Assembly (NCBI GenBank): GCA_002778965.1
Contig: PEXX01000050.1
Coordinates: 1-32,463, forward strand
DNA length: 32,463 bases
Direction of reading: 5' to 3'
Source of the DNA: Candidatus Kuenenbacteria bacterium CG08_land_8_20_14_0_20_37_23
Lineage (GTDB): Bacteria; Patescibacteriota; Patescibacteriia; UBA2196; GWA2-42-15
Shown: positions 896-15,956 of the stretch, piece after piece
Layout of the letters: the number at the start of each line of letters is the position of its first letter
Numbering within the stretch: the first letter of the stretch is position 1
The notes under the pieces: model-generated
The model's database searches: none
Told to the model about the DNA's origin: nothing
Seen by the model: the letters and a program-made list of their open reading frames with translations, nothing else
Made by a program: the position numbers and the translations under genes

Positions 896-3652
896 ATGCC
901 GCAAAGCAAATACAAAAATAAACTTGAAAAAGATTTGGAAAAACTGTCATGGGAGTTTGTTTTGGATGCGGACAACATGGGAAAAGATGAGAATGAGATT
1001 TTTTTAGAGGAGAATTATGAGGACGATACGACTGATTTTACGAAAAAAAAGAAAGCAATTGACAAGAAGACCGAGAACATTCATAGGGATTTGAATATAG
1101 AGAGTCTTTACGGTAAACGCGATGATTTATTTTTGAATATAAATGAACTTAATAGAAATTCAAGCATAATTTTTGACGAAAAAAAGCTTCAGGCTAATAA
1201 AATTACTGAATGGACAAAAGCCCCGCGATTGAGAGAACCGCTTATTAAAAAAGCACTTTGCGGATTATTAAGGGTATTAGCATATCCAGGCGCGCTTTCT
1301 GTCAAAATCATATTCAGTTTATCCAAGAATTCATGGATTGCGGCAAAGAGCATAGGTTTATCAATCTATAGATTGGTTAAAATGATAGTTTCTTTCCCAT
1401 GGCAGATTTTGTTGGCTTTGCGAGCATCTTTTATTTATCTTTTTGGAGATTTGAGTTGGATCAGTATAAACAAAACAGCGTTAGCAGATGTCATGCCAAA
1501 TGAAGGCAATATTTTTCCTTACCGTCGTTTAAGAGCCATGGTGTTTTTTGTTTTTGTTGCTTTGGTTTTAGTTTTGCCGATACAGGGCTATGTATTATAT
1601 AAAAAAAGTCAGGACACAAAAGGGCATGTAATGGGCGCATCGCTTGAGGGCATTGAACATATGAAACTCGCTAGTGCGCTTGGCTTGGATTATGATTTTA
1701 GCGGAGCCGGAGATAAATTTAGGTTGGCCGAAAATGATTTTTTGGAAGCGGAGAGAAGTTTTGGCGAGTTTCAAGACACAGCAAGCAGATTATCTTTTCT
1801 TATTCCGGAAGTAAAAAGCGGGCGTGAGCTCCTAGAGATTGCTAAAAAATCAGCGCAGATTGGCATTCATTTAAGCATGGTGGCAGATGCTCTCGGATTA
1901 ATAGATATTGGGAATGTGAAACTGGAAACTGGAAAGGAGGAAAACGAATTGATTTTGGCCATTGATAAAAATCAATCAATAAAAGAACAAGAAACAGCAG
2001 GACAAGAAAACAACAATTTTAGCGCTATTGATCAAGAATTGAAGCTGGCGCTGGGCGAGGCAATGGAGATAAATGATATTTTGGGAGAAATTGATTTGTC
2101 CGACACCGATTTTGGAGAATATCAGGGAGAGTTTGAGAACATAAAAAAAGAATTTCCGCGGCTTATCGCGTTTTTGGACGAAAGTAAAAATATTTTCAAA
2201 ATCATAACGTATTTTTTGGGGAGCGGCGAGCCAAGAAGATGGATGCTTGTTTTTGAGAATAATAGAGAACTGCGTCCAACAGGCGGGTTTATGGGCTCAT
2301 ATGCGATTCTTGATGTGAAGGATGGCAAAATTAAAAATATTGAAGTGCCTGGAGGAGGATTTTATGATTTAAAGGGATCAATGCAAGTCAAAGTTGACGC
2401 GCCATATCCATTTCATCTTTTTTCTCCAATATGGCAACCATGGAATGCAAATTGGTTTCCGAATTGGCCGGATTCAGCAAGAAAAATAGCGTGGTTTTAC
2501 GAAAATTCAGGTGGAGCGACGATTGACGGGGTGATTGCTTTCACTCCGAAAGTACTTGAAGATTTGCTCGCGTTGACTGGAGAGATTGTGATGCCAGAAT
2601 ATGAAACAGCGGTCAATAGTGAAAATTTTGTGCGTATGGCGCAGATGGAGGTGGAGATTGAATATGACAAAGAAGAAAACAAACCAAAGAAATTTATCGG
2701 AGATCTTTTACCAAAGGTGATTGATCGCATATTTAGCTTGAAGGACGATAGAATGTTGGAAATATTTGAAGTAATTGGCGATGCATTCATGGAAAAACAT
2801 TTGTTGGTATATTTTTATGACAATCAATATCAGGAGCTTGCTCGCAAGCTATCTTTTGCCGGCGAGATTAAGGAGACTTCGTCTGATTATTTGAGCGTAG
2901 TGCACACTAATATTGCCGGCGGCAAGACTGATATGGTCATGATGACGAATATTAATCATAAGATAGAGATTATGGAAGACGGATCATTGCTTAGCGAAGT
3001 AATCATCAGTAAAAAACATAATGGATCGCGAGATGATATATTTGAAGGCCAGCGGAATATAGATTATCTGCGTGTTTATGTGCCGCTAGGAGCCGAACTG
3101 CTTGAAGCGAGCGGGTTTGACAAAATACCGAAAGATCGTATTTTTCAGATAGCCGCTGTTGATGACAACATAGCCGCTGATAACGATTTGTCCAGAATTG
3201 AAACTAATTTAAGAATTGATGGGAAAAGCGGGACGCGCGTAACTGACGAATTTGGTAAAACGGTTTTTGGTAATTGGATGATTGTCGGCCCGGGAGAAGA
3301 AAAAAGCGCTAAAGTAAAGTATCTTTTGCCTTTTAAGTTTGCAGAGATTAATAATAAACCGCAAAAACTTGGATTTTTAGGGCTGGTTAGACAGTATTTT
3401 TTTGGAAAACAAAAAGAAGAGGTAAAAAATTTTATGGCGCGAGAGAAATATGTTTACAGCCTATTAGCCCAAAAGCAGGCTGGAACTGAAAATGACAAAA
3501 TTAAGAGCGAAATAGTGGCAAGTCCGTATTGGGAAATCGCCAATTATTTGCCGAAAACTGGCGAGATTATTTTTTCAGAGAATGGTTTTACTTATGCAAG
3601 CGAGCTTAGAACAGACAGATATTATGGGGTTGAGGTAGTTAGGAAACAGTAA
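896..3652 (+). CDS. DUF4012 domain-containing membrane protein
   Basis: Motifs LVFENNRELRPTGGFMGSYAIL, NANWFPNWPDSA, IDGVIAFTP, TNIAGGKTD, YLRVYVPLG and QKQAG; N-terminal TM segment. ATG at 896 preferred over TTG at 851. Confidence 0.8.
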   Translation: MPQSKYKNKLEKDLEKLSWEFVLDADNMGKDENEIFLEENYEDDTTDFTKKKKAIDKKTENIHRDLNIESLYGKRDDLFLNINELNRNSSIIFDEKKLQANKITEWTKAPRLREPLIKKALCGLLRVLAYPGALSVKIIFSLSKNSWIAAKSIGLSIYRLVKMIVSFPWQILLALRASFIYLFGDLSWISINKTALADVMPNEGNIFPYRRLRAMVFFVFVALVLVLPIQGYVLYKKSQDTKGHVMGASLEGIEHMKLASALGLDYDFSGAGDKFRLAENDFLEAERSFGEFQDTASRLSFLIPEVKSGRELLEIAKKSAQIGIHLSMVADALGLIDIGNVKLETGKEENELILAIDKNQSIKEQETAGQENNNFSAIDQELKLALGEAMEINDILGEIDLSDTDFGEYQGEFENIKKEFPRLIAFLDESKNIFKIITYFLGSGEPRRWMLVFENNRELRPTGGFMGSYAILDVKDGKIKNIEVPGGGFYDLKGSMQVKVDAPYPFHLFSPIWQPWNANWFPNWPDSARKIAWFYENSGGATIDGVIAFTPKVLEDLLALTGEIVMPEYETAVNSENFVRMAQMEVEIEYDKEENKPKKFIGDLLPKVIDRIFSLKDDRMLEIFEVIGDAFMEKHLLVYFYDNQYQELARKLSFAGEIKETSSDYLSVVHTNIAGGKTDMVMMTNINHKIEIMEDGSLLSEVIISKKHNGSRDDIFEGQRNIDYLRVYVPLGAELLEASGFDKIPKDRIFQIAAVDDNIAADNDLSRIETNLRIDGKSGTRVTDEFGKTVFGNWMIVGPGEEKSAKVKYLLPFKFAEINNKPQKLGFLGLVRQYFFGKQKEEVKNFMAREKYVYSLLAQKQAGTENDKIKSEIVASPYWEIANYLPKTGEIIFSENGFTYASELRTDRYYGVEVVRKQ

Positions 3653-3722
3653 AAAGGCAAGAAATAAAATTATAAAGTTGGGAAGTTATTTAATTTTAGG
3701 AAGTTGAATAAAATTGATAAAT

Positions 3723-3747
3723 AGGGTGTTTTATTAACGCCTTTTTT
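3723..3747 (+). terminator. Intrinsic terminator after the DUF4012 gene
   Basis: AGGGTGTT-ttatt-AACGCCTT stem running into a T tract. Confidence 0.55.
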
Positions 3748-3804
3748 ATTTTGGCTAATCTTAGTATAATGTTATATTTTATAATGTTTTTGACATCAGA
3801 CAGC

Positions 3805-3833
3805 TTGACAAGTTTTCAAATGTATGCTATTAT
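3805..3833 (+). promoter_or_regulatory. Sigma70-type promoter with extended -10
   Basis: TTGACA (3805-3810), 17-bp spacer ending TGC, TATTAT (3828-3833). Confidence 0.7.
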
Positions 3834-3850
3834 CATATGATATTTAAAAT

Positions 3851-3859
3851 TGTGGATAA
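3851..3859 (-). promoter_or_regulatory. Consensus DnaA box
   Basis: TGTGGATAA = reverse complement of TTATCCACA, just downstream of the 3805 promoter. Function not established. Confidence 0.35.
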
Positions 3860-4184
3860 GTATGGCTATTTTATAAAAACAGTAATTAAAGATGACTGCT
3901 TTTACAAAATAGCTATAAGCCCAAGCATTGGCGATGATGAATATTTCTTCATACATTGCCTTGCTTGGTCGGCTATTTGACACTGTAGTTAAGCTTGAAA
4001 ATTTGGAGGTTAGGCGTTATCTTGACTTGGTTTTTATCCGGTTCCGACTGGATAATCCCATTTATTTAACGTCAATGAATAAAACAGTTTTGCTGTATTT
4101 ATTCTCTTACCATGCTTTTACATGGTTATTTTCTCTGATTCAGCGGAGAACATAACCTCCAATTTTTCCAGCAAAAACTCGCAC

Positions 4185-4214
4185 AAAAATCCGACCGCTT
4201 GCGGCCGGATTTTT
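4185..4214. terminator. Bidirectional intrinsic terminator
   Basis: AAAAATCCGACCG-cttg-CGGCCGGATTTTT. Confidence 0.75.
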
Positions 4215-4272
4215 AAATTGCGTTTAAATACGAAATTTGAATTTTTCTGTATTTTTGGTAAGCTAAATGCAT

Positions 4273-5343
4273 ATGAAAATCGTTATTTTCGCTGGAGGAA
4301 TCGGCACAAGATTGTGGCCATTATCGCGGAAAAATTCACCAAAACAGTTTTATAAAATTTTTGACGGCAAATCAACCCTTGAGCTTGCTTTTGAGCGTCT
4401 GCGTAATTTTGGCGTGGAAAATATTTATGCGCAGACAATTCAAAAATTTTCAAGCATCATCGCGCAACAACTGCCTGACTTGCCTTGCGAAAATATTTTT
4501 ATTGAACCGGCTATGAGAAACGTTGGCCCCGCAGTGGCGCTTGCAGCGCAAAAATTGAAGGCGCTTGATTATTCAGGGCCAATCGCCATCATTTGGGCAG
4601 ATCATATTATGAAGCGGCCGGAAGAGTTTACGGAGAAGCTGGAAATAGCGGAAAGGCTGATAGAAAAAAATTTTAACAGATTTATTTTTTTAGCTGAACA
4701 ACCGCGTTTCGCCAATAATAATCTTGGCTGGATACGCATTGGAAGCAGAATAGGCGAGACTGATTGCGTTGATCTTTTTGAGTTCAAGGGATGGAAATAC
4801 AAGCCCGATCAGGTGAAATGCAATCAGATGTTTAAATCAGGAGAATATTTTTGGAACCCTGGCTATTTTGTCAGTTCAATTGATTTTATTCTTAGTCAAT
4901 ATAAAAAATTGGCTCCGCGGATTTTCACGGCAACGCTTGCTGTCGCAAGGAGCAAAGACAGCCGAAAATCCGCTGATATTTATTCAAACCTTGAAAAAGA
5001 ATCATTTGACAGGTGCTTGATTGAAAAAACAGATTTTAAAGACGCAATCGTCCTGAAAACTGATATGGGCTGGAGCGATCCAGGCACTTTGTATGCGCTG
5101 AAAGAAGCTCTGCAAAAAAGCTTTGAAGAGAATGTTGAGATTGGAAAAGTTTTCAATTATAGTTCCAAAGATTCTCTGATTTATAATTTGGAAAATAAAA
5201 AATTGGTTGCCACTGTTGGGCTTGATGGAATGATTGTAGTTAATACGGAAAACGCCATAATTGTTACTCGTAAAGATAAAGTCAAAGAGATAACTGGACT
5301 AGTTGAGCAATTGGAAAGATTCGGCTATGGGGAATATTTATAA
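4273..5343 (+). CDS. manC: Mannose-1-phosphate guanylyltransferase-like sugar nucleotidyltransferase
   Basis: IFAGGIGTRLWPLSRKNSPKQF, EPAMRN, ADH, YFWNPGYF and GWSDPG motifs; C-terminal beta-helix region; no fused PMI cupin. Confidence 0.8.
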   Translation: MKIVIFAGGIGTRLWPLSRKNSPKQFYKIFDGKSTLELAFERLRNFGVENIYAQTIQKFSSIIAQQLPDLPCENIFIEPAMRNVGPAVALAAQKLKALDYSGPIAIIWADHIMKRPEEFTEKLEIAERLIEKNFNRFIFLAEQPRFANNNLGWIRIGSRIGETDCVDLFEFKGWKYKPDQVKCNQMFKSGEYFWNPGYFVSSIDFILSQYKKLAPRIFTATLAVARSKDSRKSADIYSNLEKESFDRCLIEKTDFKDAIVLKTDMGWSDPGTLYALKEALQKSFEENVEIGKVFNYSSKDSLIYNLENKKLVATVGLDGMIVVNTENAIIVTRKDKVKEITGLVEQLERFGYGEYL

Positions 5344-6540: not shown

Positions 6541-7071
6541 AATCCAAGCAAATCATAAGCCGGATTCTGTTCTATTTTGCGCCGTAGCGCGATAGTGTGG
6601 TCATCTATCTTAGCGAGCTGTCTTTGAGCTCTTGCACCAGGCAGGGTTTTCCGCATTTCTATGTCGCCATAGAGATGTGTGGGCTTTTACCCTCTTGAGA
6701 CAAAAGCTCAAGATTCCGCATTTTACAACGGAACGCATTTTCACCCTTACCCTTCACGTATTTTTCTTCTTGATAATTGAGATTCTGTAAAACAAAAAAG
6801 AAAAATATGTGAAGGGCGGTATATTTTCTGTGGCACTTTCCCTGGGTTTTAAAGTTGTCCGATAAAAAATTACGATCGTATATCTTTTATCGTACTTCTT
6901 ATACTCGGTCGCTTTTACGACTGCCATGACTCCGATTTTGGATCGGAGGGTGTCCGGACTTTCCTCCCCTCGCATAGTCTCTGCTATCCAATATTTTTTA
7001 CTGGTTGAATCATTTATTTGACTGAAGAAGCGAAGACTATGCGAGGGGCAACCACTTGATTTGCTTGGATT
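6541..7071 (-). ncRNA. rnpB: RNase P RNA, ~531 nt
   Basis: Minus strand carries GAGGAAAGTCC (6956-6966), AGTGCCACAGAAA (~6825-6837), GGTAAGGGTGAAA and ACAGAATCCGGCTTA (6556-6570). P1 is the terminal inverted repeat AATCCAAGCAAATCA/TGATTTGCTTGGATT. 15-bp P3 at 6966-6980/7034-7048. Confidence 0.96.
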
Positions 7072-15928: not shown

Positions 15929-15956
15929 AAAATTAGCCAATGTTAGCTAATTTTTT
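15929..15956 (+). terminator. Intrinsic terminator
   Basis: AAAATTAGC-caatgtta-GCTAATTTT followed by TT. Confidence 0.55.

Follow-up and report, generated by a model that had tools for sequence, protein, structure and literature searches.

Judged from comparative sequence analysis, RNA-1, which is encoded on the forward strand at approximately 3840-4214 of the window, is an undescribed family of structured non-coding RNA with strong comparative support, and it is probably a new housekeeping RNA. The window is the whole stretch of DNA that was analysed, 32,463 nt of contig PEXX01000050.1 from Candidatus Kuenenbacteria bacterium CG08_land_8_20_14_0_20_37_23, whose genome is referred to as G000. 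The evidence consists of the transcription signals and fold of the locus, the homologues and the compensating changes among them, and comparison with known RNA families.

Transcription signals and fold of RNA-1

The sequence-only reading had placed the candidate between its own TTGACA-17-TGn-TATTAT promoter and a strong terminator (Table 1). The promoter was borne out by a promoter scan, in which it matches 11 of 12 consensus positions in addition to the TG of the extended -10 element, and it ranks best among the seven promoter-like sites within 3400-4500, where shuffled sequences lead one to expect 3.9 ± 1.8. The RNA-1 transcript would start near 3840. A TTGACA-17-TAnnnT site is also located upstream of the core in 18 of the 22 homologous loci, with 20 to 384 nt separating the -10 box from the core. 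The proposed terminator is visible both in the sequence and in the minimum free energy (MFE) structure as a hairpin (a stem of 8 + 3 bp with one A.C opposition) followed by UUUUU, although the hairpin at 4185-4214 is not listed by the consensus terminator scan, probably because of its internal mismatch. Terminators consisting of a hairpin and a U-run are also found 3' of the core in relatives, for example, G006, G028, G005, G007, and G008.

Another element in this region is the palindrome TTRGCTAAT-ATTAGYYAA, of which G000 contains 27 copies at ≤ 4 mismatches (e.g., window 15933-15950), many of them preceding a TTGACA promoter by a few tens of bases. In G003, G005, G006, G007, and G009, a copy separates the RNA-1 promoter from the terminator upstream of it, and a degenerate copy occurs in G000 near 3751-3768. 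The palindrome may be an operator or another DNA signal.

The forward strand of 3840-4214 folds with an MFE of -130.8 kcal/mol, compared with a mean of -75.9 ± 4.5 for dinucleotide shuffles (z = -12.26), and none of 100 shuffles is as stable; the minus strand is less extreme (z = -9.17). The folding check that had been suggested for this candidate is thus in favour of a non-coding RNA. The elements read by eye, namely, hairpins A and B, a closing stem of ~20 bp (P1), and four inner hairpins (P2 to P5), are all present in the MFE structure. The proposal of a structured RNA of ~375 nt therefore stands as far as the fold of the whole region is concerned, but only the 3' domain of ~185 nt is widely conserved. 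At the inner end of P1, the 5' strand reads UGGAGGU and looks like a Shine-Dalgarno (SD) sequence, and the 3' strand reads ACCUCCA and resembles the anti-SD tail of 16S rRNA. RNA-1 is present as a single copy in G000, and its P2 apex occurs only once as a hairpin in that genome.

Table 1. Coordinates of the RNA-1 locus in the window (G000).
Feature	Position	Strand	Description and basis
Sigma-70-type promoter, extended -10	3805-3833	+	TTGACA, 17-nt spacer, TGc, TATTAT
-35 box	3805-3810	+	TTGACA
-10 box	3828-3833	+	TATTAT; the 17-nt spacer ends in TGC
Hairpin A	3861-3917	+	MFE; lineage-specific 5' extension
Hairpin B	3918-3974	+	apex AUGAAUAUUUCUUCAU; MFE; lineage-specific 5' extension
Conserved core (3' domain)	3989-4175	+	P1 closing a five-way junction with P2-P5
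P1, 5' strand	3993-4012	+	GCUUGAAAAUUUGGAGGUUA; MFE; covariation helix 1
P2, long hairpin	4013-4073	+	stacked directly on P1; apex YGGU-UCCG-ACURG, invariant G.U wobble
P3, hairpin	4077-4104	+	MFE; covariation helix 5
P4, hairpin	4109-4126	+	ACCAUG...CAUGGU; MFE
P5, hairpin	4131-4150	+	UUCUCUG...CGGAGAA; MFE; covariation helix 6
P1, 3' strand	4153-4172	+	UAACCUCCAAUUUUUCCAGC; MFE; covariation
Intrinsic terminator	4185-4214	+	hairpin, then UUUUU; visible in sequence and fold

Upstream of the core, hairpins A and B are common to G000 and G003 only, and the relatives carry other 5' extensions or almost none, as in G005, G007, G008, G009, and G151. The counterpart of hairpin A in G003 is an analogous hairpin of different sequence, and hairpin A is missing from relatives in which 20-50 nt separate the promoter and the core. 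Hairpin B has the same 16-nt apex in G003, with the lower stem changed on both sides; in addition, a loop in G010 is similar to the loop of hairpin B. Hairpins A and B are lineage-specific decoration. Since the 5' extensions vary in this way, the conserved functional unit would be the core at 3989-4175.

Homologues, covariation and known families

The first homologue, in G003, was found by BLAST with 70% identity over 176 nt, and the upstream gene and the promoter type of this locus match those of G000; weak BLAST matches yielded two more homologues. Searches of this type are insensitive, with matches in 2 of 41 genomes in one set and in 5 of 24 in another, where the real ones are only G003 and one match in G006. 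Two covariance models then extended the set: R1, which describes the 3' domain, and R2, a shorter model of the P1 5' strand and P2. Among the 24 genomes of the same order, R2 has matches in 20 at E ≤ 0.1 and in 17 at the stricter E < 0.01, with one strong match in each matching genome; by family, the matches comprise 10/10 genomes in f1 (G000 included), 1/1 in f2, and 9/13 in f3. Each of the 22 loci tested with R1 gives a forward match over the full length of the model (1-194). In another family, f15, 7 of 14 genomes match, and when 23 other families of the class were searched with sensitive filters, one genome each, only f3 and f8 matched. In an even sample of the class searched with strict filters, R1 matches 10 and R2 matches 6 of 151 genomes, and these counts are lower bounds because such searches evaluate only some of the candidates. 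In metagenome contigs, a pattern scan picked out 16 stretches; 15 of them contain an R1 match over its full length, and the majority are identical to sequences already in the set. RNA-1 is either patchy in the class or diverged beyond detection, and the low counts in the class weaken the label 'housekeeping'.

Several R1 matches were set aside. One of them (L027 in G071) was treated as false, as it is without the P2 apex. Four others, from other families of the class (L022, L024, L025, and L026, here termed class B), are long hairpins with a P2-type apex, YGGUUUCGACURG; a closing stem is found only in L024, where its sequence is different. Three of the four loci (L024, L025, and L026) have a conserved ACGAC bulge at the base (GGC-ACGAC-AAG...CUU-GCC), and L025 contains two tandem copies. 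The class B RNAs may be distant homologues of RNA-1 or another RNA with a common module.

All 22 homologous sequences fold alike, with P1 and hairpins arranged round a junction with short linkers. P1 has 18-23 bp across the homologues, with UGGRGRU in the 5' strand and AYCYCCA in the 3' strand at its inner end. Stacked on P1 is the long hairpin P2, whose apex is YGGU-tetraloop-ACURG, and two to four variable hairpins come after it. The junction linkers are 2-5 nt in length, A/U-rich, and variable, and the invariant positions are base-paired.

The pairing was counted on an alignment of 14 related sequences fitted to the model; whole-core MAFFT alignments, which misaligned G010 and G028, were left out of the counting. 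In this alignment, 90.7% of 808 cells are paired, a percentage inflated by the fitting, compared to 70.4 ± 1.1 in column shuffles, none of 500 of which reaches the observed value, and slid-partner controls pair at 34-49%. Both sides are changed in 44 of 61 pairs, and the covariation among homologues that had been named as a check on the candidate is thus strong in these 14 model-fitted sequences. In P1 (helix 1), 94.3% of the cells of its 20 pairs are paired, 11 pairs are changed on both sides, and 5 are invariant in the GGAGG/CCUCC box. The G.U, G-C, and U-A pairs of the P2 apex are invariant in 14/14 sequences, and the lower stems of P2 covary. Both-side changes affect 12/12 pairs in P3 (helix 5) and 6/6 pairs in P5 (helix 6), whose sequence is entirely different in relatives. 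P4 is absent from the R1 structure and was left out of the pair count; its CCAUG/CAUGG stem is seen again in most sequences of f1 and in some of f3. The G.U cells outnumber the A.C cells (99 vs 18), in agreement with the earlier remark that G-U pairs favour the forward strand, and this excess, together with the direction of the promoter and terminator, fixes the strand of RNA-1 as forward.

No Rfam family matches RNA-1 at gathering thresholds, the sole match in the window being RNase P RNA elsewhere, and the novelty of the candidate stands. At E ≤ 10, 3640-4290 gives 14 weak, chance-level matches that all score well short of their cut-offs; most cover the terminator or lie on the opposite strand, and the best is RsaF (21 bits vs a 60-bit cut-off, other strand). 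In addition, 12 homologous loci searched against Rfam at E ≤ 0.01 gave no meaningful match. A literature search, which took in passages of PMC9297842, turned up no mention of an RNA like RNA-1. ARAGORN detects neither a tRNA nor a tmRNA in the window, as the sequence-only reading had anticipated for the candidate itself, and the canonical tmRNA of G000 lies on another contig (C27:9938-10336; RF00023, 94.9 bits). Mimicry of tmRNA by the P2 apex was likewise rejected, as the 5' region of the genome's own tmRNA reads differently. RNase P RNA (RF00010/RF00011) was rejected as well, since the copy in this genome lies at 6541-7067 (-) with 127 bits. This class A RNA spans 527 nt for a model of 367 positions, with large insertions, and a TTGACA-type promoter is located just upstream of it.

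Alternative roles and the gene neighbourhood

No SRP system is detectable in G000 and 40 related genomes. Small SRP RNA and the SRP54 M domain (PF02978) are each found in 0 of these 41 genomes, the SRP54/FtsY GTPase domain (PF00448) was not found in G000, and RF00169 and RF01854 have no match in G000, including the RNA-1 region, where the absence of an SRP signature had already been noted by eye. The search method works, since SecY was found in G000 and 14/14 control genomes were positive. A literature search found no report of a missing SRP system in these bacteria. RNA-1 was rejected as an SRP RNA: neither family matches it, and without the M and GTPase domains of SRP54, it would have no SRP partner.

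It is unlikely that RNA-1 is a functional analogue of 6S RNA, that is, an abundant RNA that sequesters the RNA polymerase holoenzyme in a clade without detectable 6S RNA. Such a role would be unfilled, as RF00013 is found in 0 of the 41 genomes at E ≤ 0.01 (the best match in G000, 10.1 bits, lies elsewhere), and the strong consensus-like promoter, the ~185-nt domain with paired ends, and the position of the gene directly after rpoC in G151 are consistent with this role. On the other hand, 6S RNA is characterised by a rod with a closing stem, a large central bubble, and a terminal stem; the sequences of RNA-1 form a five-way junction with short linkers in 22/22 cases and show no rod or bubble, their conserved letters lie inside helices, and RF00013 has no match in 3640-4290 even at E ≤ 10. 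The sequence-only reading had offered a highly divergent 6S-like RNA as an alternative, which is not upheld by these results.

A second conserved hairpin RNA, RNA-2, of ~108-200 nt with its own promoter, starts with ..AAAAGGCUGCCG.. and ends with ..CGGCAGCCUUUU...; it is found directly before hrcA in family f1, has no Rfam match in the loci scanned, and has a weak candidate in G000 at C23:6844-7010 (nhmmer E = 3.5e-4). RNA-2 is located 60-612 nt downstream of RNA-1 in 11 of the 22 loci (L029, L030, L034, L036-L040, L042, L043, and L047). Relatives carry a purine block, GAGAAGAGAGAUU, that precedes the RNA-1 core by 80-150 nt, and RNA-2 contains the exact complement of this block, AAUCUCUCUUCUC; about 12 genomes have both motifs, and the others, G000 among them, have neither. 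RNA-1 could thus be a base-pairing regulator whose GAGAAGAGAGAUU block pairs with AAUCUCUCUUCUC in an internal loop of RNA-2, a reading that we consider unlikely. Pairing was judged by counting the longest complement, as RNAduplex on whole RNAs gave meaningless full-length pairings, and by this measure the 9-14-nt block is the longest RNA-1/RNA-2 complementarity in 7 of the 12 genomes tested; the joint presence or absence of the motifs and the proximity of the two genes also speak for this reading. However, neither motif is found beside RNA-1 in G000, where the best complementarity (10 nt) equals the shuffle maximum, and the same is true of G001, G005, G007, G008, and G009; the nearest (g6-type) relatives of G000 are likewise without the purine block. 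The block also lies outside the conserved core and occurs elsewhere in those loci, so it could be a DNA site. In f3 sequences, the P5 loop (UUCUCUAGA) could pair with the purine block.

A ribozyme or ligand-binding RNA of a new class is suggested by the complex multi-helix junction, the strong conservation of shape, and the lack of a known family. We regard this as improbable: a conserved unpaired core is not seen, the linkers being those short, variable A/U-rich segments described above, and no ribozyme or riboswitch of Rfam matches at E ≤ 10.

The downstream gene also bears on a possible role in cis. In G000, the terminator ends 52 nt upstream of the start of manC at 4267, and the promoter scan shows no promoter-like site between 4214 and this start. 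The separate manC promoter that had been assumed is therefore not found, and read-through into manC is possible. RNA-1 could then be a cis-acting leader (riboswitch or attenuator) that controls this read-through, which is very improbable. The genes downstream of RNA-1 vary by lineage (manC, hrcA, PrmC, alaS, and MurJ): 8 of 10 f1 genomes have hrcA, several f3 genomes have PrmC in convergent orientation, and alaS and MurJ are found in other loci. In relatives, the core has its own terminator, and a further promoter lies beyond that; in addition, the junction nucleotides are unconserved. The upstream genes vary as well (DUF4012, an epimerase, rpoC, and a glycosyltransferase), and in the 22 loci, no gene is constantly adjacent to RNA-1 and no partner protein emerges from the neighbours. 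In G011 only, a small ORF of ~60 aa with an upstream AAGGG box follows the RNA-1 core (L030 1760-1900).

Finally, it is extremely unlikely that RNA-1 is the mRNA of a small protein or the remnant of a retron or other mobile element: an ORF of 75 aa does exist at 3928-4155 in G000, a mini-ORF could start at a TTG codon downstream of the GGAGG box, and P1 is like the a1/a2 inverted repeats that flank retron ncRNAs (msr-msd), but the homologous stretch of G003 has no forward-strand ORF ≥ 40 aa, G000, G003, and G006 do not have the P2 apex in the same reading frame, the substitutions in the 14-sequence alignment preserve base pairs, no RVT_1 domain is found in G000, none of the neighbours in the 22 loci is a reverse transcriptase or transposase, and RNA-1 is single copy and syntenic within family f1. 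A conserved coding signature for ORF 3928-4155, which would have spoken for a protein, is thus not observed.

Proposed role and comparison with known systems

The reading that we prefer, to which we give about an even chance of being right, is that RNA-1 is a single-copy, independently transcribed, trans-acting, protein-bound housekeeping scaffold RNA. In general, sequence invariance inside helices combined with drifting linkers is a pattern of scaffold RNAs that proteins recognise, more than of ribozyme cores or ligand pockets, and its occurrence in RNA-1 points to a scaffold of this kind. Similarly, the consensus promoter, the single copy, and the near-universality in the order argue for a constitutive trans-acting RNA. 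We infer that RNA-1 is transcribed, processed, bound by protein, and active in trans.

The proposed mechanism would be as follows. The core, in which the 20-bp P1 closes the five-way junction carrying P2 to P5, would act in trans as an abundant scaffold for one or more proteins. Two helical elements of invariant sequence are the likely sites of protein recognition, one being the GGAGGU/ACCUCC box that ends P1 on its inner side and the other the apex of P2, where the G.U pair never varies; the variable hairpins would only maintain the shape of the RNA. In addition, the long perfect duplex of P1 is a plausible processing site for RNase III, which is encoded in G000, and cleavage there would free the inner ~140 nt.

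The P1 box is a 6-7-bp copy of the SD:anti-SD duplex. The 16S rRNA of G000 (contig C47) ends in ...GGAUCACCUCCUUUCU, the canonical anti-SD tail, and among 458 crudely called long ORFs with unrefined start codons, GGAGG occurs in the -20 to -4 region of 6 and AGGA in that of 18, which suggests that SD sequences are little used in this organism. The likeness of the P1 box to the SD:anti-SD duplex is treated as an unexplained lead and not as evidence. A housekeeping RNP subunit that uses this mimic to dock on the 30S platform, or on a protein recognising the helix, is a speculative and improbable extension. If it is true, docked RNA-1 would retain ribosomes or control initiation in a bacterium that itself makes very little use of SD sequences, and it would form part of a lineage-specific RNP in a clade without detectable SRP or 6S RNA.

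The function of RNA-1 is very likely important, since ultrasmall genomes contain little non-coding DNA and a domain of ~190 nt is nevertheless kept, as a single copy with a consensus promoter and dozens of compensating changes. With no recognisable 6S RNA, SRP RNA, or SRP proteins, the core RNA set of these bacteria differs from that of the textbook. RNA-1 and RNA-2 are candidates for undescribed ribonucleoprotein machinery in bacteria with reduced genomes.

Compared to known systems, RNA-1 shares some features with each of several RNA classes. SRP (4.5S) RNA is a housekeeping RNA, as RNA-1 would be, and is otherwise unaccounted for in G000, but RNA-1 has no GNRA-capped element like helix 8. 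Like RNA-1, 6S RNA is a stand-alone RNA with a similar core size, 5' and 3' ends that pair, and a strong sigma-70 promoter; 6S RNA is abundant, and RNA-1 is probably abundant too. Riboswitches differ from RNA-1 in both their constant class of downstream gene and their conserved unpaired junction pocket; in RNA-1, the invariant positions are the paired ones. The 20-bp P1 corresponds to the flanking inverted repeats of a retron ncRNA, which is a resemblance only; a retron requires an adjacent reverse transcriptase. P1 is also like the RNase III processing stems of rRNA and other precursors, in which a perfect duplex comparable to its 18-23 bp flanks a structured RNA; such stems need no conserved sequence, whereas the inner end of P1 is conserved as GGAGGU/ACCUCC. 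A further comparison is with raiA, OLE, ROOL, GOLLD, and similar structured bacterial ncRNAs that are known from comparative genomics alone and are contained in Rfam. RNA-1 is smaller than OLE, ROOL, and GOLLD, has no Rfam match to any of these RNAs, and belongs to a small-genome clade, but it is like these orphan ncRNAs in its discovery by covariation, its elaborate multi-helix fold, and its restriction to a lineage.
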